DNA of 64,000 nt, from contig OZ246404.1 in assembly GCA_965230955.1 (NCBI GenBank), positions 500,995 through 564,994 of the forward strand. Reading direction: 5' to 3'. The notes beneath the pieces were generated by a model. That model was given only the letters and a program-made list of their open reading frames with translations, did not search any database and was not told the origin of the DNA. This DNA comes from an uncultured Candidatus Saccharibacteria bacterium (GTDB lineage Bacteria > Patescibacteriota > CALEFQ01). Positions 9,858 to 40,565 of this stretch are shown here, in pieces. The stretch's first letter is position 1. Each line of letters begins with the position of its first letter. The position numbers and the translations under genes were made by a program.

Positions 9858-9913
9858 TCCGACCGGTTTCGGCTGGCGAAGTTAAATCATTACATTTGAA
9901 TAAGCTGAGAGAT

Positions 9914-21474: not shown

Positions 21475-23821
21475 ACCAACAGCCATACAGCTTTTTATGT
21501 TTCTCGTCGGTGCAATCGCGACGCTATTATTGATTTGGGCCGCGCCTGTCTATCTTAATTTTTGGGTACCGGATTTCTCCCCGAAAGTTTTACCGGCAGA
21601 ATTTGAACACGAGAGCCAGCTACAGTTATCGGACAGCGGAACTGGTCGGTATCTTAATTTGCCGGTTGTCTTCAATGCTAAGCAATTTGAATGGAGTAAT
21701 GAAAAAAAAGTCTATGATTTTCCGGCTTTTCTTTCAAACAAACCTTCTTTCTCCTCTCAAAATAGCTATGCCAGAAATTTTTTACTTTTTTTGCAAGAAA
21801 AATGGCAACAAGGGCAGAGACTCAGTCCTTATTTCAATCTAGCCGGGGTCAGTCGAATTGTATTTCGAACTGATTTGAAAAATAATGAATTGTCCGAACC
21901 GGACAAGATGAAATTGCGAGAGGTATTATTGAGGGACGATGGCTTGACCAGTGGCGAACGCCGAGGATTCATCACGGAATTCACCAATGCTTCGCCCAAT
22001 GAAATTGTTTATGCCAATGAACAGACTTTATTGGTTTGGGGCGGTCTAGATACTATACAAAGCCTCCGAGCGGCCCAAAATTTTGATCCGGCTAAAACCA
22101 ATTTATTGTTTGCTCATCAGTATCTGAATCCTGGCCAAATCGAAAGGTTGGCTGATTTTTCCGATGCTCTGGTGATAAAGAACGGTACCCGTCGCGATGA
22201 TCTGATCCCCAGTTTTATTGATCCTGATTTTTTCATCCGCCCGTATAATTACCTCAATTCGCTGGAAAATCAGACCTCTTGGAACAAGGCCAGCGTTTAT
22301 GAGCCTTTGCATGGCGAATGGCACAAAACATTGCGCGAGAGTCTTCAATTGCAAGATTGGGACTTTGATTACGGTCAGGGGCTGGTTTATTCGATGAGAT
22401 CGGGAGAAGGAGAATCTTTTTTCCCGACAGTAATGAATCTGGATTTCCAAGTCCGGGAACCGGGCGATTATTATTTATTGATCAGGCAGTTTGTCAACAA
22501 TCGCGGCGAGCAGATGTCTTATCGAATCGACAACTCTGATCGTAAAAAAATAAGCAGCTATTCACCGATCGGGCAATGGCAATGGCAAAAAGTCGAGACT
22601 GTCTCGTTAACAGCCGGCCAGCACAAAATAACTCTGGAGAACACCGATGGATTTTATGCCGTCAATTTGATGGCTTTTGTTCCGAAAGCGGCCTATGACC
22701 GAGCCCTGGAAAAAGTCGATGACTATTTGGCTCAAAAAAAGATTATCTATACCCAGGAGTTAAATGTCGCCCGGCTCTTGGCCGGCATTGAGACTGAATT
22801 ACCGATCAAATCCGGATCGGAGTTTAACCTCTCGTGTCCGACTTCAGAATGTCAAAACTATAACCTGGTTTCCGATAATGACGAAAAAATAATGGCGGCA
22901 TCTGAGTACGTTAAAAAAGATAAATTTGATCTTTTGCGATACTTCCCGGGCGGTTCCTTTGATAAACTGAGGCTGGAATTCAATGAAACGGAATCAGTTT
23001 CCGGGATAACTTTGAAAATTCATGATCCCGCCGGCATTAAGCTGAATATTCAGGATGGGAAAAAATGGTTCGAAATATCTTCCCAGGCAAAAAGTAAGCA
23101 TTTCAGAGTCTTATCCGAGCCTATTGCCGTCAAGCCTGACAGTACCTATGCTTGTGATCTGGAATTTCAGTTGGAAAATATCAAAGATTTGTCGGTCAGA
23201 GTTTTGCAGTATGACAAAATTGATGATATTGGCAAAAATAGTCCGAAACGAAGTGATAAAATTTCAACGAAACTGACCGAGGATAATCAAGCGGTTGTAA
23301 TAATCGACGATATTATAACTCGCCCCGACGTAAACTATGTCGTATTTGAGTTTTCTGCGGAGCAAAATAAATTGAAAGACAGTCGATGGGCATTGACCGA
23401 TTTTGCCCTGGCCAAAGTGGATGACGGGGTCACTGAGAAAACATCGTCAATGGTTATCATGCCGCCAGATTTTGAGTTTTCCAATAAGCAATACCCGATA
23501 ACTTTTGACAAGAACAGCGGCATAAATTATTCGGTTGATTTGCCCGAAAAAACCAGTTTGCTTTTGACTGTCACCGAAAGCTATGACGATTTGTGGCATG
23601 CCGGCTGCGGTACGGATCAATCGTTCGACCATGTCATGAACTATGGATTTATGAATGGGTTTTTGATTGGTGAGGGATGCCCGGGGTCGGTCGAGATTAC
23701 CTACGTCCCGCAAAAATGGTATCGATACGGAATTTGGGCGAGTTTAATATCAATCTTCCTGGGTGCGATTTTTTCCTTAATTCTATGGCGCAAACGGAAA
23801 AATCATGATCACCGCGAATAG
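21464..23821 (+). CDS. bitopic envelope protein: N-terminal TM, about 730 aa ecto-domain ending in a YfhO-C-terminal-like module, then a C-terminal TM anchor with basic tail
   Basis: N-terminal helix LFMFLVGAIATLLLIWAAPVYL. C-terminal SYDDLWHAGCG...NYGFMNGFLIGEGCPGSVEITYVPQKWYRYGIWASLISIFLGAIF...RKRKNH. Contains TAGQHKITLEN motif. Its frame opens directly after a stop at 21422-21424, so it is not a frameshifted continuation. Confidence 0.45.
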   Translation: MLNKPTAIQLFMFLVGAIATLLLIWAAPVYLNFWVPDFSPKVLPAEFEHESQLQLSDSGTGRYLNLPVVFNAKQFEWSNEKKVYDFPAFLSNKPSFSSQNSYARNFLLFLQEKWQQGQRLSPYFNLAGVSRIVFRTDLKNNELSEPDKMKLREVLLRDDGLTSGERRGFITEFTNASPNEIVYANEQTLLVWGGLDTIQSLRAAQNFDPAKTNLLFAHQYLNPGQIERLADFSDALVIKNGTRRDDLIPSFIDPDFFIRPYNYLNSLENQTSWNKASVYEPLHGEWHKTLRESLQLQDWDFDYGQGLVYSMRSGEGESFFPTVMNLDFQVREPGDYYLLIRQFVNNRGEQMSYRIDNSDRKKISSYSPIGQWQWQKVETVSLTAGQHKITLENTDGFYAVNLMAFVPKAAYDRALEKVDDYLAQKKIIYTQELNVARLLAGIETELPIKSGSEFNLSCPTSECQNYNLVSDNDEKIMAASEYVKKDKFDLLRYFPGGSFDKLRLEFNETESVSGITLKIHDPAGIKLNIQDGKKWFEISSQAKSKHFRVLSEPIAVKPDSTYACDLEFQLENIKDLSVRVLQYDKIDDIGKNSPKRSDKISTKLTEDNQAVVIIDDIITRPDVNYVVFEFSAEQNKLKDSRWALTDFALAKVDDGVTEKTSSMVIMPPDFEFSNKQYPITFDKNSGINYSVDLPEKTSLLLTVTESYDDLWHAGCGTDQSFDHVMNYGFMNGFLIGEGCPGSVEITYVPQKWYRYGIWASLISIFLGAIFSLILWRKRKNHDHRE

Positions 23822-24896
23822 AATTTTAGTTATCAAGCGCGACGCTTTGGGCGACGTTATTTCCGTCACCCCGTTTTTAGAAGTTCTGCGTCGTAATTTT
23901 CCCGCAGCCCATATTACTTACCTGGTTGGATCATGGTCGCAAGCTGTCCTGAAAAACAATCCCAGTATCGATGAATTGGTTGTGGTTGATTCTAAAACTT
24001 GGCAGAACCCGATTAAAAAATTCCTGGCCCGGGCTAAATTGGGCAAACGATTGCAGTCGCAAAATTTTGATACAGTGTTTATTCTCCAAGGACCGGCGCC
24101 GTTTCGCTTTTGGGAAAACTTCGCTCTAGCCTTAGGAGCGGTAAATCGATTGGGATTCAAAAAGCACGGAGCCTCTTCCTCCTTGACTGGTTTGATTGAA
24201 TTGCCGGTTTATACCGATCACCTTTTTAAAGTCCTCAGGCGGAATCGGGCTGAATACTATCTAGATTTGCTTATCCGGGCCGGCGTCCGAGATACCACTA
24301 ACGACGGAAATAAGCTGTATGCGACTGCCGAAGACCGACATTTTGCAGAAAATTTTTGGACCAAAAATAATTTGGCCGGTAAAAAAGTCATTACTATCGC
24401 TCCCGGCGGGGCAGTGAATCCCGGGATGAAGCAACTGGCGAAACGCTGGCCGGCAGATTGTTACGCGCAAGCCATAGATCGATTAACCGATCAGCCTTCC
24501 GTCCGGATTGTATTTGTCGGCGGTCCCAGTGATAAATCATTGATCGAAGAAATTACCCGGAAATTGACGCCGATCAAACAACGCCAGATCCTTAATACGG
24601 CCGGATTAACAAATATCCACCAAACGGCCGAATTAATCGCCAGATCAGCGCTATTTATCGGAAATGACTCTGGCACTATCCATATTGCTTCCACGACCAA
24701 AACGCCTATAATTGGCTTGTATGGCCCCACAAACCCTGTGGTTGATGGTCCATATAAGGCCCGGGGTATCAATTTGTTCCATAAAACGTCGTTTTCACCG
24801 TGCTACACCATGGACTGTTCCGGCCACAAACCTTGTATTGAAAATATCACCGTCGAAGAGGTGATTACCACCGCTCAAAAAATCCTAGAACCTTGA
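23805..24896 (+). CDS. GT9 family glycosyltransferase (heptosyltransferase-like)
   Basis: ILVIKRDALGDVISVTPF N-terminal motif and GNDSG...H, typical of WaaC/WaaF/WaaQ-type GT9. 17-nt overlap with upstream gene. Confidence 0.85.
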   Translation: MITANRILVIKRDALGDVISVTPFLEVLRRNFPAAHITYLVGSWSQAVLKNNPSIDELVVVDSKTWQNPIKKFLARAKLGKRLQSQNFDTVFILQGPAPFRFWENFALALGAVNRLGFKKHGASSSLTGLIELPVYTDHLFKVLRRNRAEYYLDLLIRAGVRDTTNDGNKLYATAEDRHFAENFWTKNNLAGKKVITIAPGGAVNPGMKQLAKRWPADCYAQAIDRLTDQPSVRIVFVGGPSDKSLIEEITRKLTPIKQRQILNTAGLTNIHQTAELIARSALFIGNDSGTIHIASTTKTPIIGLYGPTNPVVDGPYKARGINLFHKTSFSPCYTMDCSGHKPCIENITVEEVITTAQKILEP

Positions 24897-24935
24897 TTGT
24901 ATTCCGACTCTTGTTTTTCTTAATATCTTACTCCG

Positions 24936-26402
24936 TTGTCTACCATCAAGCGTGTCGCGAAAAATACACTCTGGCTGACAATCGCCGAAATCGGCGCCAA
25001 GGGACTTGGTTTTGTCATTGCCATTATTATCGCCCGGTATCTCGGTCCGGAGGATTATGGCAGTTATGCTTTTGCCATATCATTCGTGACATTGTTTTTG
25101 GTCTTGGCTGATTTTGGCATGCGGCCCCTGCTGGTGCGTGAAGTGGCGCGAAACAACCAGTTGGCGGAAAAATATCTGGCCAATTTTTTGACTCTCAAAA
25201 TCTGGCTGACTTTTTTGCTTTTCGGCGCCGTGGCGCTGGCCTTGTGGATTTACGGTACGCCGCTAAATTTATTTATCCTAACCATGGTGGCGGCGGTCGA
25301 AATCGGGGTCAATAGCTTTTCGGAAATATTTCGGGGAGTTTTCCAGGCTTTTGAACGCATGAAATTCGAAACCACTTCCCGGATTCTAAATAAGTTTTTG
25401 ATACTCGTTGGGACAATCGCTGTGATTGTTCTGGGCTTGCGCACGCTGTCGATTATGCTGGTTCTGTTAATCGCCGGGATAGTCACGGCCGTCTATACCG
25501 TGATCGTTTGTCGAAAATACTTCGTCAAAATCAAACTGGCCTTTGATAAAGTGTTTATCAAAGAAGCGCTGAAGCAAAGCTTGCTTTTTGCAGTGACGAA
25601 TATTTTTATTTCCATTTATTTCAAGATAGATAGCGTCATGCTGGAAAAAATGCGCTCAGTCACGGAAGTCGGGTACTACAATACCGCCTATGAACTGGTT
25701 TTCGCTTTTATGTTTGTGCCGACTGTATTTTCAGCCGCTGTGTACCCGGTCTTATCACGGTTCTTCAAAGACAGTCCCGGAAAAATCCAAGCTTTGGTGG
25801 CGCGATTCACCAAATACTATTCACTGACGGCGATGGCTCTGGTGGTTTTTCTGATGTTGCTGGGCGGTCCTTTGATAAAATTATTTTTTGGGATTCAGTA
25901 CGAACCATCGATTATACTGTTTCAGCAGTTGGTGGTGGTTTTGGTCTTTGTATTTCTCAATTATCTCGGCGGTACTTTGCTCAATGCCTCGAATAAGCAA
26001 ATTGTTTCCACAATTGCCTCGGGAGTTTGCGCCGGGGTGAATATCGGTCTGAATCTCTGGCTGATCCCGGCCTATGGCGCTTCCGGAGCGGCAGTAGCGA
26101 CGATAATTACGGAAGCGATATTATGCTTGATTACTTTTATATATATTGACCGCCGGCTCTACCGGGTTTTTACCCGAGAAAACTGGTTCAAGGGTTTTAA
26201 AGTTGCCGTTATGGTGGTAGCGACCGGCGTATTGGCTTATTATTTGGCTAAAGTAAACATCTATCTTAGTTCGGTCGCCAGCTTGGGATTGTTTATCGGC
26301 TTGATTTTTGTTCTGCGCCTCTATAATCCGCAAGACCGCGAATATCTCCGAGTAATACTTAGGCGCCCAAACAAAACCGGCCCGGATGAGCCGATCGAAT
26401 AA
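24936..26402 (+). CDS. Wzx-type oligosaccharide/polysaccharide flippase (MOP superfamily)
   Basis: LWLTIAEIGAKGLGFVIAIIIARYLGPEDYG N-terminus; about 14 TM. TTG is the first in-frame start after stop at 24921; no ATG before residue about 61. Confidence 0.8.
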   Translation: MSTIKRVAKNTLWLTIAEIGAKGLGFVIAIIIARYLGPEDYGSYAFAISFVTLFLVLADFGMRPLLVREVARNNQLAEKYLANFLTLKIWLTFLLFGAVALALWIYGTPLNLFILTMVAAVEIGVNSFSEIFRGVFQAFERMKFETTSRILNKFLILVGTIAVIVLGLRTLSIMLVLLIAGIVTAVYTVIVCRKYFVKIKLAFDKVFIKEALKQSLLFAVTNIFISIYFKIDSVMLEKMRSVTEVGYYNTAYELVFAFMFVPTVFSAAVYPVLSRFFKDSPGKIQALVARFTKYYSLTAMALVVFLMLLGGPLIKLFFGIQYEPSIILFQQLVVVLVFVFLNYLGGTLLNASNKQIVSTIASGVCAGVNIGLNLWLIPAYGASGAAVATIITEAILCLITFIYIDRRLYRVFTRENWFKGFKVAVMVVATGVLAYYLAKVNIYLSSVASLGLFIGLIFVLRLYNPQDREYLRVILRRPNKTGPDEPIE

Positions 26403-26436
26403 AGTGTAGTCTGTCACACTTTGAAATCTATTAAAA

Positions 26437-26473
26437 AACCCCGCGAATCTCTGAACTATCAGGACCTGGGGTT
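26437..26473. terminator. putative bidirectional terminator between convergent flippase (+) and GT9 (-) genes
   Basis: aacccc / ggggtt stem enclosing a 25-nt loop, flanked by AAAAAA (plus side) and ATTTTAT; an additional weak hairpin aaagtgt / acacttt sits at 26401-26422 on the flippase stop. Stems are weak. Confidence 0.35.
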
Positions 26474-27503
26474 ATTTTATATACTGTTCAACCGTCCGAA
26501 GAACATCGAGAACCGAAATATTGTCCAGACAGCCATGATTGAAAGTATCACAAATAGTTTTATAGCAAGGATACTTGGGGCAATCCTGGGCGCGGGTCAG
26601 AATAGTATAATGCTCGCACCAAGGATGCCACATTGACGGGTAATCTGTCCCACTGTGCAAATCAATGACCGGCGTGCCGACCGCGGCGGCAATGTGCATC
26701 GGGCCGGAGTCGTTCGAAATATAGAGATCAAGCTCGGCCAATAGTGCAGCCAGTTGACGCAAATCGGTTTGTCCGGCAACGATAAACGCCGGTTTAATCA
26801 ATGTAGATGAAATTTTTTGAGCCAATCCCAGATCGGAATTGCTGCCGGTAATAACAATCGTGCCTTGGTATTTTTCCTGCAATTTTCGCGCCACTTCAGC
26901 AAAACGAGCGATTGGCCAGCGCTTTGCTTCGGTTCCGGCGCCGGGATTAAGTCCGATTATCGGCCGAGGTAGGTCGCGTAGAGAATTGTGAGCTTTTGCT
27001 TGTTCCGCTTCGGTTATCGTCCAAATCAGTCTTGGCTGGCTAATATCGGCGCCCAGTCGCTCCGCCAGACGCAGATTTCGAAGGACGACATGCTCTTGGG
27101 GATTACTTTGCCTGACTTTTGTGGTCAGTAGTTGATCCTTTCCCGGCACGAAGAAACCGATTCTCTGTTTTGCCCCCAAAGCCCAGGATAATAGCCTGAT
27201 TACACGATTGCGACTGCGTCCCAAAACCGCCAAGTCATATTTATTCGACCGTAATTTCCGGAAAGTACTGATTGGCCGGCAGGATTTGGCCTTACCGCGA
27301 TTAAATTGGCGCAGATTTAATGTGTAGATCTGATTAATATCGGAATTAGATTCCAATACCGGCTTGGCCCAGCTCCCGACAACCGCGTCGATTTGCGCAT
27401 CGGGGAAATGTCGGCGCAGTGCGTGAATCATCGGCGTAGCCAGCAAAACATCGCCGATATGATCGGGCTGAATGACTATAATTTTTTTATACCGATCAAT
27501 CAT
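26472..27503 (-). CDS. GT9 family glycosyltransferase (heptosyltransferase-like)
   Basis: IIVIQPDHIGDVLLATPMIHAL...SNDSGPMHIAAAVGTPVI. 8-nt overlap with downstream GT4. Confidence 0.85.
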   Translation of the reverse strand: MIDRYKKIIVIQPDHIGDVLLATPMIHALRRHFPDAQIDAVVGSWAKPVLESNSDINQIYTLNLRQFNRGKAKSCRPISTFRKLRSNKYDLAVLGRSRNRVIRLLSWALGAKQRIGFFVPGKDQLLTTKVRQSNPQEHVVLRNLRLAERLGADISQPRLIWTITEAEQAKAHNSLRDLPRPIIGLNPGAGTEAKRWPIARFAEVARKLQEKYQGTIVITGSNSDLGLAQKISSTLIKPAFIVAGQTDLRQLAALLAELDLYISNDSGPMHIAAAVGTPVIDLHSGTDYPSMWHPWCEHYTILTRAQDCPKYPCYKTICDTFNHGCLDNISVLDVLRTVEQYIK

Positions 27504-28665
27504 GTTTATTCGAAATAATTTCTTTATAGGTGTCCAGTGTCAGACCGGCGGAGCGGGTCCAGGAGAATTTTTCCGCCTGTGATATGCCTCGGGTAATTAA
27601 TTCCCGCCTTAATTTTTCATCATAAATTATTTTTTTCAGTCCGGCGGCAATACTCCCGACACTAAGCGGATCGACGTAGACAGCGGCCGTACCGGCTATT
27701 TCCGGCAGAGATGAAATAGAGCTGGTCACAACCGGCAGACGGTTGCTCATGGCATCCAGCACGGGCAAGCCGAAGCCTTCGGCCAGAGATGGATACACAA
27801 AACCCAGAGCGTTGGAATAGAGCCAGCTTTTTTGGGCCGGGGAAATATAATCGGTGAAAATAATTCTACTTTTAAAATTTTTTGCGCCGGCCAAAATAGA
27901 TTCATATTTCCAGCCGAATTTACCGGCCAAGACCAGTTTCAGAGAATGCTCTTTCTCGGTGGCCAGCGCGAAGGCTTCAATCAGACGGGTCAGATTTTTG
28001 CGAGGCTCGATTGTCCCCACGTACAGCAAGAATTTTCCCGAACAGATTTTTCCCTTCAATGACTCGATTTCCGAACCGGCCGTCGTATCATCGGACCGGG
28101 CCGTGGTCGCGCCTTCGGGTACCACTGAAATTTTGTCGGGAGAAACATCAAATTGCTCGACCACCTGACGCTTGGTGGCCCGCGAGACCGCGATTATTTT
28201 ACTGGCGTGATTTATCGAATTTGGGACCAAGCTGTGGCGCCAAAAATAGTCAGACAAGCCTCCCGGGAACCATTCCGGATGCTCATAGATTATCAAATCA
28301 TGAATCGTAACCACGGTCGGCGGGCGGTAGAAAAGGGGAGTGACATTAGCCGGACCGTGAAATAAATCCAGTTTTTCCGCCAGTAAAAAATTAGCCTGCC
28401 GACGATATTTACCATACGGCCACAAACCGGAGCGCTGCATGGTTTCTCGGGGCCAAAATCTTATCTCCGTCTTCGAGCCCAGATTCAAATTTTTGAGCCA
28501 AGAGGTTTTCTCGATCGCCGGGTGAAAATATAGCTTAAAATCACAAAAGGGATCTTTGATTTTCGCCAAATTTAAAACCAGATGATAGGTATAATGCTCG
28601 ATTCCGGCACCGCCGCCGGTGGGAGAGAGAATTTTTTGGCAGTCAAGGCCGACAACAGGTCGCAT
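27496..28665 (-). CDS. GT4 (group 1) glycosyltransferase
   Basis: LLYVGTIEPRKN...PSLAEGFGLPVLDAMSNRLPVVTS. Confidence 0.85.
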   Translation of the reverse strand: MRPVVGLDCQKILSPTGGGAGIEHYTYHLVLNLAKIKDPFCDFKLYFHPAIEKTSWLKNLNLGSKTEIRFWPRETMQRSGLWPYGKYRRQANFLLAEKLDLFHGPANVTPLFYRPPTVVTIHDLIIYEHPEWFPGGLSDYFWRHSLVPNSINHASKIIAVSRATKRQVVEQFDVSPDKISVVPEGATTARSDDTTAGSEIESLKGKICSGKFLLYVGTIEPRKNLTRLIEAFALATEKEHSLKLVLAGKFGWKYESILAGAKNFKSRIIFTDYISPAQKSWLYSNALGFVYPSLAEGFGLPVLDAMSNRLPVVTSSISSLPEIAGTAAVYVDPLSVGSIAAGLKKIIYDEKLRRELITRGISQAEKFSWTRSAGLTLDTYKEIISNKHD

Positions 28666-29790
28666 TTATTTTTTTAATAACTTTTTGAAAAAATTATCCG
28701 TCCGTTCCGCCAGCTTTTCATTGGTAAAGAGGCTCCGGACTCTGGCCAGACCGGCTTGTCCAAGTTTTTCCGCCAGCCCTGGATCGGCCTGGAGTTGTTT
28801 TAAGTGCGCGGCCAGCTTATTCACGTCGCCTTCGGGGAAAATCAAGCCCGCGCTGTCAATCACGTTCGGAATCTCTCCCGAAGCGCTGCCGATAACCGGC
28901 ACGCCGCAAGCCATGGCCTCGATCAAGACTCGGCCGAATTGTTCCTTCCATTTAGCGGTGGCGATTGACGGTAAAACCAGCGCGTCGAAGAGATTGAAAT
29001 ATTGGGGCATTTCTTCGTACTTGATCGCGGGAATGAACTTGACTTGCCGGTCCAATCGTAATTTTTGGCTCAAACCCTCCAGTGCTGCCCGCTCCGGGCC
29101 GTTCCCGATCAGAAGTAGGGTGGTGTTTTCCGGCAAAAGTGCCAGGGCCTGCATTATGGTAGCAATATTTTTCTCCGGCAACAGTCGACCGACATAACCA
29201 ATGATGAATCGGGCCTCGAGTTTTAGCTTCTCTCTCAAGCAGGTAGCGTCTTGCGGTTGGAAAAAATCGGGATCGATTCCGTATTGTGGTATCACTTCCA
29301 CCGGCTTTTTATAGCCGTTTTTTTGTAAAATTTCGCGGCCGTCTTGATTGCCGACGATAGCGCCGTCGGATTGCCGGTATACCCGGGTCTCAATTTCCTT
29401 TTTCCAGCCTTGATAAATTTGGCGTATATTTTCCCAGGTGAAAAAAACAAATCTGGCTCCCTGTCGGTGCGCGATATGGCAGACCTGATTGGTAACCTGC
29501 GCCTGAGGTTCTTCTTCGGCATAAATTAAGTCGGGCTTGATCTTCTTGGCGACAGACGACAGCCCCAAATAAAAATGGCTACGCAATCGCGGCCGCAGTA
29601 AACAAGTCAAAGCCAGGACTGTCAGATTGCCTTTCTGGCGATTCGCCCCGCGGACCAATTGCTGTCCGCCTTCCAGCCACGCTTTGGGAATGATCAGCCA
29701 AACCTTGTGACCGAGCTTATTCGCCAAAAAATCAAATTTTTGCTGATAACGCTCGATGACAGCCGAATGAGAGATGACTAAAATCTTCAT
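28666..29790 (-). CDS. GT4 (group 1) glycosyltransferase
   Basis: GYVGRLLPEKN...PSIATAKWKEQFGRVLIEAMACGVPVIGS. Confidence 0.85.
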   Translation of the reverse strand: MKILVISHSAVIERYQQKFDFLANKLGHKVWLIIPKAWLEGGQQLVRGANRQKGNLTVLALTCLLRPRLRSHFYLGLSSVAKKIKPDLIYAEEEPQAQVTNQVCHIAHRQGARFVFFTWENIRQIYQGWKKEIETRVYRQSDGAIVGNQDGREILQKNGYKKPVEVIPQYGIDPDFFQPQDATCLREKLKLEARFIIGYVGRLLPEKNIATIMQALALLPENTTLLLIGNGPERAALEGLSQKLRLDRQVKFIPAIKYEEMPQYFNLFDALVLPSIATAKWKEQFGRVLIEAMACGVPVIGSASGEIPNVIDSAGLIFPEGDVNKLAAHLKQLQADPGLAEKLGQAGLARVRSLFTNEKLAERTDNFFKKLLKK

Positions 29791-29791
29791 A

Positions 29792-31744: not shown

Positions 31745-31746
31745 AT

Positions 31747-32913
31747 TTAGCTATTAAATATTTTTGATATCGCCGCGATAACTTCATCGGTTGTAATTAG
31801 TTCCAGACAGCTCGGCCGGCGCTCACATTTGGTTTGCGGACAAGGCGAGCACTCGACGGGATGGTAGATCGTAATATTTCTATTTTGCCATGGACCGTAA
31901 CGTTTCGGCGTATTTTGACCAAATAGCGCGATAGCCGGTGTCTGGGTGGCACAAGCAATATGCAGGGGACCGGAATCGTTGCCGATGAATAATTTAGCTC
32001 CGGCAATTACCGCCGCGGTGGCTTTCAAATCCAAGTAACCGGCCAAATTGAAAGCTTGCCGGCCGGCGGCGCGAACAATTTCTTGCGCTGCGTTCTTTTC
32101 TTTCTCCGTCCCGATGACCATGACCGTTTGGCGGTAATCCGTCACCAGTGATTTCGCAATTTGGGCAAATCGATTTGCCGGCCATTCTTTCGGCTTCCAG
32201 CCGGCAAAAGGATGGATGACCGTGTAATTATCGCCCGGGTGAATCCCGCATTGACTCAATGCTTCCGCGGCTCGGTTTTTAGCGTGAGAATCCAGGGCTA
32301 TTTCTAGTTTCAAATTTTTCGGTAGTGCTACTGTCGGGCGCAACGAGCGGACTAGGCCGAGTTTCCTTTCCGCTTCGTGCTGTAGGCCATGATAGGGCGC
32401 CACTCCGGTCAACCAGAAACCGCCGCCACGAATCGCCTGTGAAACCCGTTGGGGAATGCCGAGCTTTTTCAAGAGATAAATTGTCCGCAAATCGGCGCGC
32501 AAATCTAGGCCTAAATCAATCGAAGCCGGGAGCTCTGCTTTAATTTTAGGCAGTGCTTGCCTGATTAGATTGAAATCCGTCTTCATTCCGCCGGTAGTTG
32601 CACTAAACCGAGGTAAATCAACTAAATGCAATTGATCGATATCGGGATTCCCGCTCAAAATCTCATAGCCGGGTCGGCGGACTGCCACGATAATTTTAGC
32701 CTTGGGGTAAATTTGTCTCAGTAGCCGGAGTGCCGGAGTAGAAAGTAAAACATCGCCGATTTCATCCAATTGCAAAACCAGGATATTTTTTGGATCGAAG
32801 TTTTTTGGCCACTGGCGACCGATCTTGGACCAGCCCCAAATCAAATATCCGGCGGCATTGATCAGGCCGAGCAGTATCCGCTGGCGACGATTTTTTAGTT
32901 TATATGTAGCCAT
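31747..32913 (-). CDS. GT9 family glycosyltransferase (heptosyltransferase-like)
   Basis: ILVLQLDEIGDVLLSTPALRLL...GNDSGPLHIACATQTPAIALF. ATG at 32913 (ORF track start 32922 is TTG). Confidence 0.85.
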   Translation of the reverse strand: MATYKLKNRRQRILLGLINAAGYLIWGWSKIGRQWPKNFDPKNILVLQLDEIGDVLLSTPALRLLRQIYPKAKIIVAVRRPGYEILSGNPDIDQLHLVDLPRFSATTGGMKTDFNLIRQALPKIKAELPASIDLGLDLRADLRTIYLLKKLGIPQRVSQAIRGGGFWLTGVAPYHGLQHEAERKLGLVRSLRPTVALPKNLKLEIALDSHAKNRAAEALSQCGIHPGDNYTVIHPFAGWKPKEWPANRFAQIAKSLVTDYRQTVMVIGTEKEKNAAQEIVRAAGRQAFNLAGYLDLKATAAVIAGAKLFIGNDSGPLHIACATQTPAIALFGQNTPKRYGPWQNRNITIYHPVECSPCPQTKCERRPSCLELITTDEVIAAISKIFNS

Positions 32914-33013
32914 GGTGATCAACTCATCAGATCATTTGTCTCGCCAAGGTAATTATTCTTTTAAGCATGGGAGATCCCATTCGGGAAATACTTAAAAGAA
33001 TAATTAGCTTGGC

Positions 33014-34087
33014 TCAAATCACGTGTCGCTTAACTGCGGCAAAAACCTGGTCGACAGTGATCCGGTCGAAGCAACCCTGCGCCGCGCGCGGATCTAATTT
33101 AGCGGAAGTCGTAGTAAATGGGTACTGGAGCAGGGAATTGTGATCAGGATCGGTGATAACTTCCGCTCGATCGGTGTAGGGACGGGTGCGGCTGATTGAC
33201 GTTGGGCCGAAAATCGCCACCACGGGAGTTTGCATCGCTACCGCCAGGTGCATCAAGCCGGAATCATTCGAAATAAATAATCGGCATTTTTTGATCAACG
33301 CGGCAGCATTAGGGAGAGAGTCGGTAGCTACTACCGGCTTGGTCTTCATCATTTTTATCATCTCGGCCACGTCGGATTTTTCATCCGGCCCCGCCACAAT
33401 CAAAACTTTGGCATACAGCTCTTTTTGAATTTTATCAGCCAGCTGGGCGAAACGATCCAGCGGCCAGCGCTTGGACGAAAAAGAAAAATCTTGGCTGGAG
33501 CCGATATGCAGGCCGACGATTATTTTTCCCGATTCCAGATTACTAGCGCAAAAACTTTCCGCCCAGCGGTCATTATCAGCGGTAGTCTGGAAAAACAATC
33601 GTCGATTGGCTGTCCCGGGATCTATCCCCAGCGGCTTTAATAAATTAAGGTTTTGATCGACATCATGTAATTGGGAATCGGCCGCGATTCTGACATTTTG
33701 CAATCCGGACAAAGTTCTGATAGCGGGAGTGGCATATTGATGGGTAATCCTTTTTTTCGCGTGGACCAGCCAGGCAAACACATTGAAAAACCATTTATTC
33801 GAAGGAAAAACCGTCAGGCAATAATCGTACTTCTGGCGGCGCAATTGCCTGATTAGCTTTAAACGAGATCCGAGTTTTTTTATGCTGAAAAGTGAAGTTT
33901 TCGCAAAATCAAACACCTTGGTTTCGTCGATCAAATCACTTCCTTTGACCGGTGCGACAAATGAGCTTGAGGTCCCTAAGAAAGTTATCCGAGCATCGGG
34001 AAATTTCTGACGCAAAGCACGCAAAGTCGGAGTGAACATGATTGTGCACCCCATACCGGAAGCGGAAATTATCAAAAATTTGGCCAT
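33014..34087 (-). CDS. GT9 family glycosyltransferase (heptosyltransferase-like)
   Basis: FLIISASGMGCTIMFTPTLRAL...SNDSGLMHLAVAMQTPVVAIF. ATG at 34087. Confidence 0.85.
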   Translation of the reverse strand: MAKFLIISASGMGCTIMFTPTLRALRQKFPDARITFLGTSSSFVAPVKGSDLIDETKVFDFAKTSLFSIKKLGSRLKLIRQLRRQKYDYCLTVFPSNKWFFNVFAWLVHAKKRITHQYATPAIRTLSGLQNVRIAADSQLHDVDQNLNLLKPLGIDPGTANRRLFFQTTADNDRWAESFCASNLESGKIIVGLHIGSSQDFSFSSKRWPLDRFAQLADKIQKELYAKVLIVAGPDEKSDVAEMIKMMKTKPVVATDSLPNAAALIKKCRLFISNDSGLMHLAVAMQTPVVAIFGPTSISRTRPYTDRAEVITDPDHNSLLQYPFTTTSAKLDPRAAQGCFDRITVDQVFAAVKRHVI

Positions 34088-34155
34088 AAATACACAAATA
34101 GTGGTCTGAATAAAAATCAAGAATCTAACGCTTATTTTAGCCCAAAGTTACCATT

Positions 34156-34184
34156 TTGGCAAACCCTTGACGGGATCACCGATA
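34156..34184 (+). promoter_or_regulatory. sigma70-like promoter TTGACG-17-TAGAGT
   Basis: ttgacg 34156-34161, 17-nt spacer, tagagt 34179-34184; followed by SD and GTG 34226. Confidence 0.4.
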
Positions 34185-34225
34185 TTCCGTAGAGTGATAG
34201 GAACTTCGGCTGAAAGGAGGGAAAT

Positions 34226-34810
34226 GTGGAAAATAATTCAATGTCAGTAAATGATCTGTTGCTGGCGACATTGGGATCAATCATCCATAGGTTAAAAGGG
34301 CAATGCGTAACCCTGGGCGAACCGATACTGAAAGAAGGAATATTCATAAGTCCATTGCCGGAAACTCCGGCAGATGGCTTTCTTCATCAGAAACTCTGGG
34401 TTGTGGATATCGGTTCCAAATGCTATGTCTTTTCCCTGGGCGATGCCACCGGTTCCAATACCTCTCAAATTTTCACTTGCGAATTGATCGTCATCACCGA
34501 CGCCCGTCGAGCCACCAATCAGGAAATGATCAGTTTGGCAATCAGGAATTCGCGTGGAGGATTCCGTTGCACCATCTTGCTTGGCTATAACAACGGAGGG
34601 TTACTGATTCCCAAGGACGGTTACTATCATCAGGTTGCGAACGACCATCACTTATCGGATTTTCCGGAAGAATACTTGGAAAGAATAAAAGATCAGGCTG
34701 CAGAAAATGAAAGCCCGGGACGTCCCCAGCCGTGTCGCTTATTATACCGTCCGCCGGCTGTCCGACATCTGATGCAGAATCTCCTTGACATTTTTCAAAA
34801 TGCACCATGA
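34226..34810 (+). CDS. hypothetical protein (194 aa), no recognisable domain, GTG start
   Basis: SD AAAGGAGGG 4 nt upstream of GTG 34226 (ATG at 34241 is too far from the SD). Own promoter upstream and own terminator downstream. Confidence 0.5.
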   Translation: MENNSMSVNDLLLATLGSIIHRLKGQCVTLGEPILKEGIFISPLPETPADGFLHQKLWVVDIGSKCYVFSLGDATGSNTSQIFTCELIVITDARRATNQEMISLAIRNSRGGFRCTILLGYNNGGLLIPKDGYYHQVANDHHLSDFPEEYLERIKDQAAENESPGRPQPCRLLYRPPAVRHLMQNLLDIFQNAP

Positions 34811-34824
34811 TTCTCATCGTCGCC

Positions 34825-34853
34825 AAAGGCTCTAGTGAAACAGAGCCTTTTTG
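34825..34853 (+). terminator. Rho-independent terminator
   Basis: aaaggctct / agagccttt 9-bp stem, 8-nt loop agtgaaac, then TTTTG; 15 nt after the stop of 34226-34810. Confidence 0.7.
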
Positions 34854-34854
34854 A

Positions 34855-34883
34855 TTGACAGCAAGCGCGAAACGGATGATAAT
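34855..34883 (+). promoter_or_regulatory. sigma70-like promoter TTGACA-17-GATAAT
   Basis: ttgaca 34855-34860, 17-nt spacer, gataat 34878-34883; SD AAAGGAGG and ATG 34921 downstream. Confidence 0.6.
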
Positions 34884-34920
34884 ATGAAGTCACATCGAAT
34901 TCATCGAAAGGAGGACAAAG

Positions 34921-35652
34921 ATGAATCACACTAATGCCAAACTGGCAGCGTCTTCGATTGCCGAATACCTGCTTGGCCGACAAGGTCAAGAACTCTTAGC
35001 CAAATTGCGCCAACGCAGTCTGGTAATTCCATTGGCACAACTTGGGATTATTACCGAGCATGAACACAACTGGAAAAGGATTGCCGCCCTTGATTGTACT
35101 GGTCAGATTCTGATCCTGACCGTCCGGCAAGATGTCCTGTTGGACACGGTTGTCGAAATGGAAGCGGTGGCCGACCAGCCCAAAATGACCATCTTTGATG
35201 TTGTCAGTAGTATCTGGCGACAAAGCAAAACCGAACCGGATCTTCTGACCAGGTTAGAAATTGCGGCCACTAAAGTTTTGAAGATGCATGATCTGCCAGA
35301 TCTGTCTGAAGCGAAAATCAACTATATACGTAAATTAGAACAATATTTCGCCCAGATCCGGATCAGCGACATGTCCCGAGACCGGATAAAAAGATTTGGC
35401 ATTGTTGCTCGAGTGGCGAATCTGGTGCCCGAAGGAGCGACTGAAAGAGTTGCCAAAGCCTGTTTGGTCGTATCGGATACCAATTGGTCGCTGCTGGCAG
35501 TTGAAGTTTTCCAGCAATACCAGTTAAAATCTGATCCGCCGACCGGACCGTTTTGCCAAGTTCCTGGTCTATTCCTGGTGCCAGGCACAGCTGACCGGCT
35601 GAAAAAATACCATATTGTCGAGCATTGCGATCCACTGACTTTGTCATGGTAA
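34921..35652 (+). CDS. hypothetical protein (243 aa), no recognisable domain
   Basis: SD AAAGGAGG 6 nt upstream of ATG; preceded by a TTGACA-17-GATAAT promoter and followed by a strong terminator. Confidence 0.6.
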   Translation: MNHTNAKLAASSIAEYLLGRQGQELLAKLRQRSLVIPLAQLGIITEHEHNWKRIAALDCTGQILILTVRQDVLLDTVVEMEAVADQPKMTIFDVVSSIWRQSKTEPDLLTRLEIAATKVLKMHDLPDLSEAKINYIRKLEQYFAQIRISDMSRDRIKRFGIVARVANLVPEGATERVAKACLVVSDTNWSLLAVEVFQQYQLKSDPPTGPFCQVPGLFLVPGTADRLKKYHIVEHCDPLTLSW

Positions 35653-35672
35653 CCGCAGATTCAGTCCAAATC

Positions 35673-35710
35673 AAAACCGACAGAAATTTCTGTCGGTTTT
35701 CTTTTTTTAT
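35673..35710. terminator. bidirectional Rho-independent terminator between convergent genes
   Basis: aaaaccgacag / ctgtcggtttt 11-bp stem, loop aaattt, followed by CTTTTTTTATT; abuts the gmhB stop (35710) and lies 21 nt after the stop of 34921-35652. Confidence 0.8.
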
Positions 35711-36318
35711 TAGCGTGGTTTTAGCCACCATTTGACTCCGTCGAGCAAGTCCGCCGCGACATAATCAGGCTTGACCTCGTAGCGATCCCTTTCTTCCTTT
35801 CCGCCGTAGCCTGTCTGAACCAGGACGCCGAGGCAACCGGCGTTTTCTGCCATTTTAACTTCCGCCGTCTTGTCGCCGAAGCAACAGCTGTTTTTTAGAT
35901 CGATCGCGATCCCTTGCTTCGCAAAATGGTCAATCGCTTGTTTGATCATGCCGATTCGCGGTTTGCGGCAGTCGCAAGAAATATTATATGGCGGTATCGC
36001 CTTATGGAGATCCTCCAGGTCCGGATGGGGGCAAAAATAGATGCCATCCAGCCGAACGCTTTTGCCGATTAAATCGGCTCTGACGCGATTCATCAATTCC
36101 CAGAAATCGGCTTCGGTATATTTTCCCCGGCCGATACCGGATTGGCCCGTGATGATAATTACCAATAGATCCGGCGTCTCGGAGAGGATTTTCAAGGCTT
36201 GGGATGAGCCGGGGATATATTCCCAGTCTTCCCAGCGATATAAGTATTTTTTGTCTTGGTTAATGACACCATCTCGGTCAATAAAAGCCGCTCGTTTTAT
36301 CACTTTGTTATTTTCCAT
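35710..36318 (-). CDS. gmhB: D-glycero-D-manno-heptose 1,7-bisphosphate phosphatase (HAD-IIIA, GmhB)
   Basis: FIDRDGVIN HAD motif I, CDCRKP motif, GDK..D. 202 aa. Confidence 0.85.
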   Translation of the reverse strand: MENNKVIKRAAFIDRDGVINQDKKYLYRWEDWEYIPGSSQALKILSETPDLLVIIITGQSGIGRGKYTEADFWELMNRVRADLIGKSVRLDGIYFCPHPDLEDLHKAIPPYNISCDCRKPRIGMIKQAIDHFAKQGIAIDLKNSCCFGDKTAEVKMAENAGCLGVLVQTGYGGKEERDRYEVKPDYVAADLLDGVKWWLKPR

Positions 36319-37285
36319 CGTTCTTGATCACTTGTTTTAATTCGCTGGTATCAAGTGTAGCCGTACCGACTTTTCCCACCACCACTCCCGCCGCATAATT
36401 CGCAATCTCGGCCGCGTCGAGGAGGGAAGCGCCGCTAACTAAGGAGAGCGCCAGAGTTGATACGACGGTATCGCCGGCACCGCTGACATCAAAAATCTCC
36501 CGAGCTTTTGTCTTTATAACTACCGGCTTCCGGCCGATTTCAAAAATAGCGACGCCGTCTTCGCCCTGGGTCAGGACGATATTACTTTCCAGTTCTTCTT
36601 GAAGCTGCCGGCCGGCGTCCAAGACGGATTCGGCTCCCGACATCTCCCTGGCTTCTTTTTTGTTCGGCTTGATTACCGTCGCCCCGCGATAATAATCTTT
36701 ATGAGACGGCTTAGGATCGACGACCACCGGGATTTTTCTCTGTGCCGCCAGTGAAATTATTTGCTGGGCGATCTTGAGGGAAATCATTCCCTTGGCATAA
36801 TCGGAAATAATCACCGCTCCGACCTGCGGAATGTTTTTTTTGATCTGCGTCAGAATCTTTTTTTCCAGGAAATCGCCAATCGGTTTTATTTCTTCTTCGT
36901 CGATGCGCAAAAGCTGATGCTGAGGAATCGCCATGATACGATTTTTCCTGATCGTGGGGCGTTTGGAATCGGGTAATAAATAGCCGGCTTTTATCTTTTT
37001 ATCCTTCAAAACTTTTTTGAAAATTTCGCCGTTACGATCAGCGCCTATCAGTCCCATCAGCAGGGCTTGTCCGCCCAAAGCATTGATATTGTTGGCAACA
37101 TTGGCCGCCCCGCCGGCGGTATACGTTTCGCGTTGTACTTGAACTACCGGGACCGGCGCTTCAGGCGAAATACGCTCGACTTTACCCCAAACCGCGCTAT
37201 CCAGCATAACATCACCCACCACCAAAATCTTCTTGCCTCTAAACTTGTCGATATTTTTTAGTAGTTTGGTGTTTTTGTGGGACAT
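36308..37285 (-). CDS. hldA: D-glycero-beta-D-manno-heptose-7-phosphate kinase (PfkB family, HldE kinase-domain-like, stand-alone)
   Basis: PfkB signature DVSGAGDTVV; GKKILVVGDVMLD; 325 aa = kinase domain only, no adenylyltransferase domain. Confidence 0.8.
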   Translation of the reverse strand: MSHKNTKLLKNIDKFRGKKILVVGDVMLDSAVWGKVERISPEAPVPVVQVQRETYTAGGAANVANNINALGGQALLMGLIGADRNGEIFKKVLKDKKIKAGYLLPDSKRPTIRKNRIMAIPQHQLLRIDEEEIKPIGDFLEKKILTQIKKNIPQVGAVIISDYAKGMISLKIAQQIISLAAQRKIPVVVDPKPSHKDYYRGATVIKPNKKEAREMSGAESVLDAGRQLQEELESNIVLTQGEDGVAIFEIGRKPVVIKTKAREIFDVSGAGDTVVSTLALSLVSGASLLDAAEIANYAAGVVVGKVGTATLDTSELKQVIKNDGK

Positions 37286-37288
37286 ATT

Positions 37289-37903
37289 TTACCTTTTGCC
37301 TTTAGCCTTTTGCTTTTTGGCGATTTTTTCCTCTGCCAACTCGCAAATAATATGCAAAATCGTCTCGTGGCACTCCTGGATTCTGGGAGTATCTTTTGAC
37401 GGAGCCTTCAGAGCTAAATCCACCATTTTTATTACATCAACGCTTTTATCGCTGAATAAACCGATAATTTTCATCTTTTTACGTCGCGCTTCTTGAAGAG
37501 CATAAGCAATATTGGCGGAATGCCCGTGTTCGCTCAGCTCCACATCACTGGTGGTAATGGCAATGGCAATATCTCCCGCTTGCCCAAAGGCCGAAATCCA
37601 TTTCTGAAAAGTCAGATGATAGCCGTCATCATTGGCGATCGCCGTCAGGACCGAAGTGTCTGCATGCAAAGCCAGTGCCGGCAGGGGAGTGCGAGCAATC
37701 TTGAACTTGTTCACAAATTCGCCGGCAAAATGCTGGGCATCCGCCGCACTGCCACCATTGCCGAAGATCATTATTTTTTTACCCTGGTGCATGGCAACGA
37801 CAATCATGTCAACAGCTTTAACCACGCTTTTACTCAAAACATCAGCCGCCTTAACTTTGACCGCCGCACTTTCCAGAAATATTTTCTTGATTTGTTCTTT
37901 CAT
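37289..37903 (-). CDS. gmhA: phosphoheptose (sedoheptulose-7-phosphate) isomerase, SIS domain
   Basis: IFGNGGSAADAQHFAGEFVNKF and SIS-domain layout, 204 aa. Confidence 0.9.
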   Translation of the reverse strand: MKEQIKKIFLESAAVKVKAADVLSKSVVKAVDMIVVAMHQGKKIMIFGNGGSAADAQHFAGEFVNKFKIARTPLPALALHADTSVLTAIANDDGYHLTFQKWISAFGQAGDIAIAITTSDVELSEHGHSANIAYALQEARRKKMKIIGLFSDKSVDVIKMVDLALKAPSKDTPRIQECHETILHIICELAEEKIAKKQKAKGKR

Positions 37904-40501: not shown

Positions 40502-40565
40502 TTTTACCTCCTTGAAAATTTCGCATGATTGCGAACGGTGTATGTTACAACACTCAAACCATATG

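Follow-up and report, generated by a model that had tools for sequence, protein, structure and literature searches.

A heptose operon that has lost hldC, beside four GT9 genes in a surface-glycan island of a likely Patescibacteria bacterium

Introduction

Can a bacterium that has no lipopolysaccharide (LPS) build heptose into its surface, and from what donor? The question is raised by a 64,000-nt stretch of contig OZ246404.1 (hereafter the window), where an operon for heptose phosphate, gmhA-hldA-gmhB, stands beside four genes for glycosyltransferases of family GT9, to which the heptosyltransferases of Gram-negative LPS belong, and where neither the nucleotidyltransferase HldC nor the epimerase HldD is encoded. 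We read the window with flanks of 8.2 kb on the left side (L006) and 5.8 kb on the right side (L093), ~78 kb in all out of a genome that is 1.14 Mb or larger, and set it beside contigs of relatives that include L007 (GCA_030607525.1, contig JAUWJU010000013), L003 (GCA_042570845.1, contig JBHPGH010000005), L095 (ENA ERZ15185023, NODE_833), and L002 (CALEFQ010000052). The Logan assemblies of SRR10083292/294/296 also hold exact window proteins.

The reading that we favor, with moderate confidence, is that the region is the heptose part of a surface-glycan island in a small-genome, LPS-free bacterium of the Patescibacteria and that the nucleoside diphosphate (NDP)-activated heptose would be made by a nucleotidyltransferase encoded elsewhere in the genome. 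Patescibacteria (the candidate phyla radiation, CPR) have no outer membrane and no LPS. A KEGG-level survey had earlier recorded an adenosine diphosphate (ADP)-heptose module in CPR Paceibacteria (PMC9166423), and what heptoses are for in cells without LPS is still an unanswered question (PMC11573728).

Results

The heptose operon

The first-pass annotation had proposed an operon of gmhA, a PfkB-type kinase gene, and gmhB, and profile scores and motifs bear out all three identifications and their coordinates (Table 1). The best NCBIfam matches of the isomerase are phosphoheptose isomerase models (NF010546, 178.7 bits against an equivalog cut-off of 276, and TIGR00441, 140.6 bits, both below their equivalog cut-offs), and the protein is 78–83% identical across relatives. 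The kinase carries the GAGD motif and scores above the cut-off of the rfaE domain I model. It aligns only to residues 4–313 of Escherichia coli HldE (40% identity), that is, to domain I, and is therefore a stand-alone domain I kinase, as had been suggested. A scan of genome contigs with the kinase returned one relative only. The GmhB-like protein has a DRDGV motif and a C-x-H...C-x-C zinc loop, and its best models are NF006506 (147 bits, below the cut-off of 178) and TIGR00213 (115 bits). By family membership, GmhA would isomerize sedoheptulose 7-phosphate, HldA would phosphorylate C1 (beta anomer), and GmhB would remove the 7-phosphate, so that the product of the three would be beta-D,D-heptose 1-phosphate. 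Selection on the heptose genes that remain is strongly purifying, with ratios of nonsynonymous to synonymous substitution (dN/dS) between the window and L002 of 0.09 for hldA and 0.08 for gmhB (dS saturated).

The search for HldC and HldD

That neither HldC nor HldD is encoded in the window, as had been noted from the sequence, stood up to every search made, and the flanks gave the same result for HldC. In the window, no match to HldC (domain II of HldE) was found by tblastn with E. coli HldE, by tblastn with the HldC proteins of two relatives, or by a strict search for the motif G-x-F-D-x-x-H-x-G-H. A hidden Markov model (HMM) of HldC built from 120 sequences and run with hmmsearch --max over all six-frame segments 30 aa or longer returned no match at E<=1 in the window or either flank; the same model gave 192–233 bits on the HldC genes of two relatives, L004 and L007. 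No HldC remnant is thus detectable in the window. Among the open reading frames (ORFs) of the window there is no epimerase of the short-chain dehydrogenase/reductase (SDR) family that could be HldD. The epimerase is optional in such pathways, where D,D-heptose is usable directly.

The gap extends to sugar-1-phosphate nucleotidyltransferases of any kind, none of which was found in the ~78 kb, even though the 21 glycosyltransferases and a GDP-mannose 4,6-dehydratase (Gmd) require nucleotide sugars. Neither a GHMP kinase nor a PF00483 guanylyltransferase (HddA and HddC of the GDP-heptose route) appeared in any window scan. Two candidates were examined and rejected. A 221-aa GT2 protein at 11910-12575 matches NTP_transf_3 weakly, and its matches to GT2 and polyprenyl-phosphate-sugar synthase models are far stronger. 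An SDR gene 0.6 kb beyond the left edge of the window, considered as hldD, is the gmd gene itself (L006:6559-7581; TIGR01472, 418 bits, cut-off 415); it is followed by a 146-aa ORF (L006:7583-8023) without a family match. Given Gmd, a GDP-6-deoxyhexose would be a further product of the island, and here too no nucleotidyltransferase gene lies close by.

How much weight does the absence of hldC carry? Of 80 metagenomic loci fetched with the kinase profile, 19 have a stand-alone hldA flanked on either side by 5 kb or more; hldC is present (within 5–10 kb) at 5 of these and unlinked at 14. Among the eight of these 19 loci with GT9 genes, six are without hldC. Because an unlinked hldC is the norm, its absence from a window is unsurprising in itself.

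Loss of hldC from a conserved cluster

Comparison with relatives gives the absence more meaning. The heptose operon is embedded in a gene order common to five related contigs, Wzy_C-GT2-GT4-GT4 followed by the divergent series Wzx-GT2-small transmembrane (TM) protein-YdjM-gmhA-hldA-gmhB-GT9, and the full order downstream of gmhB is GT9 (the Cys variant described below)-GT9-650-aa protein-GT4-GT4-GT9, with identities of 48–83%. Among named homologs, that of L003 comes nearest to the kinase (59%); this genome is labelled "Patescibacteria group bacterium", and its cluster is the same gene for gene.

In L007 and L008, whose kinase and GmhB are 56% and 65% identical to those of the window, a 166-aa PF01467 gene, hldC, sits precisely in the interval from gmhB to the first GT9 gene. 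The more distant L004 and L005 encode a 356-aa HldC::GmhB fusion (rfaE_dom_II, 170 bits; GmhB, 165 bits) between hldA and a GT9 gene, at L004:9388-10458 and L005:9256-10326. We know of no such architecture among the described mono-, di-, and tridomain heptose enzymes. In L003 and in L002/L095 (78% identical), gmhB is followed after ~120–150 nt by a GT9 gene, with no hldC, and in the window the slot is a 1.6-kb interval with two genes on the opposite strand. Because L007 has the gene in the slot and L004 has the fusion, whereas the window, L002/L095, and L003 have neither, hldC once belonged to the operon and was then lost from it. The loss occurred at least once, before the window and L002/L095 lineages split, and possibly twice, since the distance between L003 and L007 is about that of either one from the window. 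It did not release the other operon genes from selection, as the dN/dS values of 0.08–0.09 indicate.

L003 has one further gene in this region, a PRPP-synthetase-like gene (Pribosyltran_N/Pribosyl_synth, 300 aa; L003:5601-6503) between the YdjM gene and gmhA, a position that may be coincidental.

The two genes that now occupy the slot in the window are ORFans of 189 and 243 aa, each preceded by a Shine-Dalgarno sequence (Table 1). Neither has a match in Pfam, NCBIfam, PHROGs, or PADLOC, and both are absent from the syntenic relatives. For the 243-aa protein a single representative, 95% identical, was found among 1.84 billion, and single-sequence AlphaFold2 models of both reach a predicted local distance difference test score (pLDDT) of 34, too low to give a confident fold. 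They look like real lineage-specific genes. As a substitute for HldC the pair is unsupported: there is no family match, and since other hldC-less genomes do without them, they are not a general replacement. Between the 243-aa ORF and gmhB stands a hairpin resembling a bidirectional intrinsic terminator, which would end gmhA-hldA-gmhB transcription ahead of the GT9 genes.

The GT9 enzymes

All four genes assigned to family GT9 in the first pass were recovered at the positions given for them, with PF01075 scores of 104.6–144.1 bits against a gathering score of 22; we number them GT9-1 to GT9-4 by position. The ATG start used for GT9-3 fits the gene call better than the longest ORF, which begins at 32922, and that of GT9-4 fits the N termini of its orthologs better than the longest ORF, which begins at 34120. 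The four proteins are mutually ~30% identical and score 86–164 bits on models of LPS heptosyltransferases I, II, and III, the best matches being II and III. GT9-1 and GT9-2 pass TIGR02195 (cut-off 134.6), GT9-3 and GT9-4 fall below TIGR02201 (cut-off 170.2), and all four fail by far the PRK models for RfaF (569), RfaQ (467), and RfaC (437). Against TIGR04414, the TibC/Aah model, they reach at most 15.1 bits, with a cut-off of 200. These profiles place them with the LPS-type enzymes, not with the TibC/Aah protein heptosyltransferases.

Residues on the donor side are invariant in a four-way alignment: K213, W215, P216, and N287-D288-S289-G290...H293, which match Lys195 of HepII (in a K-R/E-W-P motif) and its Asp269-Ser-Gly-x-x-His274. 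In HepI and HepII, Asp13 is the catalytic base, Lys195 binds the donor, and Asp269 senses the heptose (bioRxiv 10.1101/2022.06.13.495986). GT9-2 aligns with HepII (1PSW) and 3TOV over Asp13, Lys195, and Asp269–His274, and Asp13 is kept in GT9-1, GT9-2, and GT9-3. In GT9-4, aligned with 3TOV, HepII (1PSW), and HepI (2GT1), the Asp13 position is taken by Cys14. The Cys is conserved in all five members of the GT9-4 ortholog group (window 33014-34087 (-), L002:2439-3545, L095:11730-12803, L003:8838-9908, and L007:12166-13254), whereas the 32 other GT9s of the fetched loci have Asp. In every relative it is GT9-4 that comes first behind the heptose operon, and in L002 and L095 it is the sole GT9 seen.

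The remaining three are placed differently. GT9-3 has orthologs in L003 (52%) and L007 (51%), and GT9-2 is the last gene of the minus-strand heptose and glycosyltransferase cluster. GT9-1, for which no ortholog was found in the fetched stretches of relatives, is the last glycosyltransferase of a plus-strand operon, and its start overlaps the end of the gene for a 785-aa exported protein. Four GT9 genes within 10.3 kb beside a heptose operon are not a chance pattern, because the set adjoins that operon and the synteny is conserved in other genomes, with GT9 linkage to gmhA-hldA-gmhB kept in five other genomes or contigs. It is this genetic linkage, to gmhA-hldA-gmhB(-hldC), that would support ADP-heptose as the donor.

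The GT9 family also includes GlcNAc and Glc transferases, and the four enzymes could in principle be non-heptose transferases that neighbor a heptose operon by coincidence. Such a view could draw on the scores of GT9-3 and GT9-4, which lie below every equivalog cut-off, on the mere 3 bits by which GT9-1 exceeds TIGR02195, and on the absence of hldC. We judge it very improbable, given that the heptose-sensing Asp and D-S-G-x-x-H are invariant in all four and that a GT9 gene directly follows gmhB or hldC in six independent contigs.

The acceptor

The first-pass annotation had placed the GT9 genes outside a lipid A or 3-deoxy-D-manno-oct-2-ulosonic acid (Kdo) context and had proposed a non-LPS acceptor, a proposal that the present analysis strengthens. 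Pfam scans of the window and 14 kb of flanks revealed no lpx, kds, or waaA family. The window does encode two Wzx flippases (PF01943) and a Wzy/O-antigen-ligase-type protein (PF04932). With no lipid A or Kdo genes, with synteny to Patescibacteria, and with Wzx, Wzy_C, GT-C, GT2, and GT4 neighbors of the kind that build surface glycans, a non-LPS acceptor is well supported and is the best reading of the locus.

Beyond the clade, the nearest named relatives of the module, among the matches listed, are from DPANN archaea (Woesearchaeota, Pacearchaeota, and Nanoarchaeota; P0018, P0019, P0036, P0137, P0141, P0176, and L009), with identities of ~49% for the kinase and ~55–58% for HldC. This distribution suggests that the heptose module may have been exchanged between CPR bacteria and DPANN archaea.

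Could this nevertheless be an ordinary inner-core LPS locus of a diderm, with lipid A and Kdo genes, hldC, and hldD elsewhere in the genome? The best GT9 model matches are LPS heptosyltransferases II and III, and many metagenomic hldA loci with three or four GT9 genes resemble core loci. We nonetheless hold this to be highly improbable in view of the Patescibacteria label of the syntenic relative, the 1.14-Mb size of the source contig, which is typical of CPR bacteria, the lack of lpx, kds, and waaA in ~78 kb, and the finding that, among the matches listed, the module's nearest relatives outside the clade belong to DPANN archaea, which have no LPS.

A different non-LPS acceptor would be a protein, an S-layer protein, pilin, or other surface protein, heptosylated directly by the GT9s. 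ADP-heptose-dependent protein heptosylation does occur in bacteria (PMC11573728), and no priming phosphoglycosyl transferase (PF00953 or PF02397), with which a lipid-linked glycan might begin, was found in the ~78 kb. The TibC/Aah enzymes, however, form a different family (at most 15.1 bits on TIGR04414, compared with 86–164 bits on the LPS-type models), and the cluster is built on Wzx, Wzy_C, and GT-C proteins, which handle lipid-linked glycans. Direct protein heptosylation therefore seems quite improbable to us.

The surrounding glycan island

Family scans place the heptose operon in an island of glycan genes that exceeds 70 kb, takes up the left three quarters of the window, and continues for at least 8 kb beyond its left edge (features around the operon are listed in Table 1). 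The island has 21 recognizable glycosyltransferases and contains eight GT2, six GT4, and four GT9 genes and three large GT-C-type membrane proteins (PMT_2 or AftD-like; 838, 1073, and 915 aa), and two of the GT2s are of the polyprenyl-phosphate-sugar-synthase type. There are further polytopic membrane proteins of 650 and 521 aa, a Wzy_C protein, a DUF4012 protein, and Wzx flippases, two in the window and a third to its left.

Table 1. Features of the heptose operon, the GT9 genes, and their neighbors (window positions)
Feature	Position	Strand	Evidence and remarks
GT9-1, 363 aa	23805-24896	+	PF01075 104.6 bits; TIGR02195 137.9 bits
Wzx-type flippase, 488 aa	24936-26402	+	PF01943 148.8 bits; L003 ortholog 59%; convergent with GT9-2
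GT9-2, 343 aa	26472-27503	-	PF01075 144.1 bits; TIGR02195 163.9 bits; L003 ortholog 57%
GT4 glycosyltransferase, 389 aa	27496-28665	-	PF00534 98.7 bits; L003 ortholog 53%, order kept
GT4 glycosyltransferase, 374 aa	28666-29790	-	PF00534 120.9 bits; L003 ortholog 53%, order kept
Polytopic membrane protein, 650 aa	29792-31744	-	~12 TM segments and C-terminal soluble part (TM scan)
GT9-3, 388 aa	31747-32913	-	PF01075 123.1 bits; TIGR02201 131.3 bits; N-terminal hydrophobic extension
GT9-4, 357 aa	33014-34087	-	PF01075 120.7 bits; TIGR02201 137.5 bits
ORFan, 189 aa	34241-34810	+	gene call on Logan contig; GAAAGGAGG Shine-Dalgarno sequence
ORFan, 243 aa	34921-35652	+	GAAAGGAGG Shine-Dalgarno sequence; promoter-like TTGACA-17-GATAAT at 34855
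Bidirectional intrinsic-terminator-like hairpin	35673-35700		perfect 12-bp stem and T-run; inverted repeat I1
gmhB-like heptose 1,7-bisphosphate 7-phosphatase, 202 aa	35710-36318	-	HAD-IIIA
hldA, stand-alone PfkB kinase, 325 aa	36308-37285	-	TIGR02198 rfaE_dom_I 369 bits, cut-off 345
gmhA-like sedoheptulose-7-phosphate isomerase, 204 aa	37289-37903	-	SIS_2 PF13580 71.8 bits
YdjM-family membrane protein, 166 aa	37934-38434	-	PF04307 38 bits
Single-TM protein, 161 aa	38482-38967	-	position between GT2 and YdjM genes kept in clade
GT2, polyprenyl-phosphate sugar synthase type, 318 aa	38967-39923	-	PF00535; 2 C-terminal TM segments
Wzx-type flippase, 493 aa	40566-42047	-	PF01943 56.1 bits; heads minus-strand cluster
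Wzy_C protein	45498-47072		PF04932

The 650-aa membrane protein, whose L003 ortholog (48%) occupies the same position, has no Pfam match and matches weakly the NF047440 LA_3751/3752 putative glycosyltransferase family (21.6 bits). No relationship to the PMT_2 and Wzy_C proteins of the window was seen with hhalign, in which the profiles held two sequences only. We regard it as a candidate GT-C-like transferase or polymerase. Upstream of the operon, the YdjM and single-TM genes always lie between the GT2 gene and gmhA (L003, L007, L092, and L095). The 318-aa GT2 protein, with orthologs at 73–80%, gives partial matches to AglJ, dolichyl-phosphate-hexose transferase, PpgS, and ArnC models, and the 493-aa flippase has orthologs at 66–71% in L003, L007, and L092. 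A 160-aa ORF (40103-40585, minus strand) between the Wzx and GT2 genes has neither a family match nor a homolog in the syntenic relatives; at its position L007 has an unrelated 194-aa ORF.

Ahead of GT9-1, a 521-aa polytopic protein with ~13 TM segments (19909-21474, plus strand) is followed by the overlapping gene for the 785-aa protein (21464-23821, plus strand), the gene that runs into the start of GT9-1 and whose product has TM segments only at its N-terminal and C-terminal ends. Neither protein has a family match, and the two may be a split GT-C-like enzyme. Farther to the left, three B12-binding radical S-adenosylmethionine (SAM) enzymes are interspersed among the glycosyltransferases (window 8379-9857 and 12572-14014; L006:5085-6554), together with SAM methyltransferases (window 6766-7464 and 9896-10675) and a Methyltransf_21 protein in L006. 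These genes suggest that the glycan contains unusual sugars with C- or O-methylation.

From 50.9 kb on, the window holds housekeeping genes (CtpA-like protease, L9, CTP synthase, L27, IscS/NifU, PrsW, M23 peptidases, and GluRS), the last of them cut by the window end, with its 3' part at 63178-64000. Among them is a DNA methyltransferase-like protein (54759-56090, minus strand; N6_N4_Mtase/UPF0020) that matches PADLOC mad2 (mads_2) at 65 bits. Just past the window lie a WecG/TagA-type GT26 gene (L093:15713-16483, 0.7 kb right of the window end), which suggests a ManNAc-type wall-polymer linkage unit, and an AmmeMemoRadiSam trio (radical SAM, LigB, and AMMECR1; L093:17124-19524). Neither an Rfam family nor a tRNA was found in scans of the window.

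Discussion

How would these parts work together? With heptose 1-phosphate supplied by the operon and the ancestral HldC lost, the NDP-heptose would be completed by an unlinked nucleotidyltransferase, one that is unlikely to be closely orthologous to the HldC of the clade, and no epimerase would be needed if D,D-heptose is used. The GT9s (three with Asp13, one with Cys) and two GT4s would attach heptose and hexose units to a lipid-linked acceptor at the cytoplasmic face of the membrane. Wzx flippases would then export the glycan product, and the Wzy_C protein and GT-C enzymes, the latter using polyprenyl-phosphate sugars from the GT2 of the operon, would attach, polymerize, or decorate it outside the membrane. 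The final carrier would be a non-LPS molecule, such as a wall polymer, a glycolipid, or a surface protein. That a nucleotidyltransferase exists somewhere in the genome is argued by the remaining genes, which are kept under strong purifying selection in three hldC-less genomes.

Several points weigh against this proposal. The placement of the host in the Patescibacteria rests on its relatives. With no priming phosphoglycosyl transferase in the ~78 kb, the lipid-linked route is one that we infer rather than observe. In the GT9 whose linkage to the heptose operon is tightest, the canonical catalytic Asp is missing. The nucleotidyltransferase itself, acting in trans, is hypothetical, and the most direct search for it was negative. 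When HldC of L007 was searched against a collection of 5.8 billion proteins with a method that uses a word filter, 348 relatives were found, and none of the 120 best, which extend to 45% identity, lies on the source contig. Judged by GmhB (65%) and HldA (56%) of L007, an HldC ortholog should be ~50–65% identical, so a simply relocated hldC ortholog is unlikely, since none on the source contig is among the matches listed. An HldC less than 45% identical would escape those matches, and the HldC proteins of L004 and L007 are themselves only 39% identical. Two close HldC relatives show hldC among unrelated genes, one (P0128) on an archaeal-looking metagenome contig and the other (P0144) in another metagenome-assembled genome (MAG). 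Taken together, a divergent or different nucleotidyltransferase encoded elsewhere in the genome is most probable. The first-pass annotation had called the donor unresolved on the strength of the gap in the window. The gap by itself says little, hldC being usually unlinked (14 of the 19 loci), and the doubt about the donor is better founded on the loss of hldC from the operon and on the lack of a close ortholog among the matches listed.

Might the nucleotidyltransferase truly be gone? A true absence of any heptose-1-phosphate nucleotidyltransferase is a minority prospect in our estimation, although one with real weight. The pathway could then work through noncanonical chemistry, which we likewise regard as unlikely: a nonhomologous or promiscuous nucleotidyltransferase might serve, a GT9 (e.g. 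the Cys variant) or the neighboring GT2 might take heptose 1-phosphate or polyprenyl-phosphate-heptose as donor, or the heptose phosphates themselves might be the useful product. In accord with this idea, the ancestral slot is without hldC in three related genomes, no remnant is detectable, no close HldC ortholog is on the source contig among the matches listed, gmhA, hldA, gmhB, and GT9 are still under strong purifying selection, and the operon-linked GT9 has an unusual active site in which Asp13 is replaced by Cys. On the other side, only ~78 kb has been seen of the genome, which measures 1.14 Mb or more, a divergent HldC (<45%) would lie beyond the matches listed, hldC is generally unlinked from hldA, and all four GT9s keep the ADP-heptose-binding motifs. 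To our knowledge, there is also no precedent for a GT9 enzyme with a non-nucleotide donor. In its boldest form, which we rate a little lower still, the whole clade would have lost the heptose-1-phosphate nucleotidyltransferase and would activate or transfer heptose by undescribed chemistry, while keeping the operon and the GT9s, Cys variant included. A nonhomologous nucleotidyltransferase, a heptose 1-phosphate or polyprenyl-phosphate-heptose donor, or completion of the pathway by a host or partner cell would each be an option.

We thus continue to favor an unlinked nucleotidyltransferase and a non-LPS surface glycan, a combination that borrows from several known systems and coincides with none of them. 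The isomerase, beta-anomer PfkB kinase, and HAD phosphatase are of the same families as in the Gram-negative ADP-heptose pathway that feeds WaaC, WaaF, and WaaQ; the GT9s share the ADP-heptose-binding Lys and D-S-G-x-x-H with the Gram-negative heptosyltransferases; and the stand-alone kinase is like that of bacteria with split hldA and hldC. The locus differs from the Gram-negative LPS pathway in having no Kdo or lipid A context, in its likely CPR host without an outer membrane, in the absence of HldC and HldD from ~78 kb, in a GT9 with Cys for Asp13, and in its setting in an island with Wzx, Wzy_C, and GT-C proteins. The clusters in other Patescibacteria MAGs vary in turn: L007 has hldC, L003 has the PRPP-synthetase-like gene, and L002/L095 have the Cys-variant GT9 only.

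Heptose also reaches non-LPS surface glycans by another pathway, in which GDP-D-glycero-alpha-D-manno-heptose is made by GmhA, HddA, GmhB, and HddC for the S-layer glycans and capsules of organisms such as Aneurinibacillus and Campylobacter. The likeness lies in a cell without LPS-core chemistry that places heptose in a surface glycan; the enzymes differ, as that pathway relies on a GHMP kinase, a PF00483 guanylyltransferase, and non-GT9 transferases, whereas the window has a PfkB beta-anomer kinase and neither of the two other families. The autotransporter heptosyltransferases TibC, Aah, and BAHT likewise perform ADP-heptose-dependent heptosylation of a non-LPS acceptor, but they belong to another family, as the TIGR04414 scores show, and the window encodes no autotransporter substrate. 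Perhaps the most instructive comparison is with the cross-kingdom NDP-heptose biosynthetic enzymes (HBEs) of Tang et al. (summarized in PMC11573728 and PMC11461863). Stand-alone kinase and monodomain nucleotidyltransferase types occur there in organisms without LPS, the kinase type is that of the window, and the closest relatives are in DPANN archaea. HBE sets are defined there by the presence of the nucleotidyltransferase, exactly the piece that the window is missing, and the GT9s of the window in turn provide a likely use for the product.

Overall, the ADP-heptose/GT9 module is itself of a known kind, in a host that is unusual and poorly studied. What is new is the position of hldC between gmhB and GT9 in L007, the HldC::GmhB fusion in L004, and the loss in the window lineage. 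If the nucleotidyltransferase is simply elsewhere in the genome, this would be an ordinary pathway in an unusual host, with two small features left to explain, the lost hldC and the Cys-variant GT9. For enzymology, the hldC loss and the conserved Cys-for-Asp exchange offer small leads. Closely related heptose modules are carried by CPR bacteria and DPANN archaea, both without LPS, and the locus described here ties such a module to GT9s, flippases, and GT-C enzymes. It thereby yields a concrete, testable hypothesis, namely that a surface glycan of this episymbiotic and uncultivated lineage, about whose envelope chemistry hardly anything is known, contains heptose. Because NDP-heptoses are innate-immune agonists, knowing which non-LPS microbes make them may have some wider relevance.

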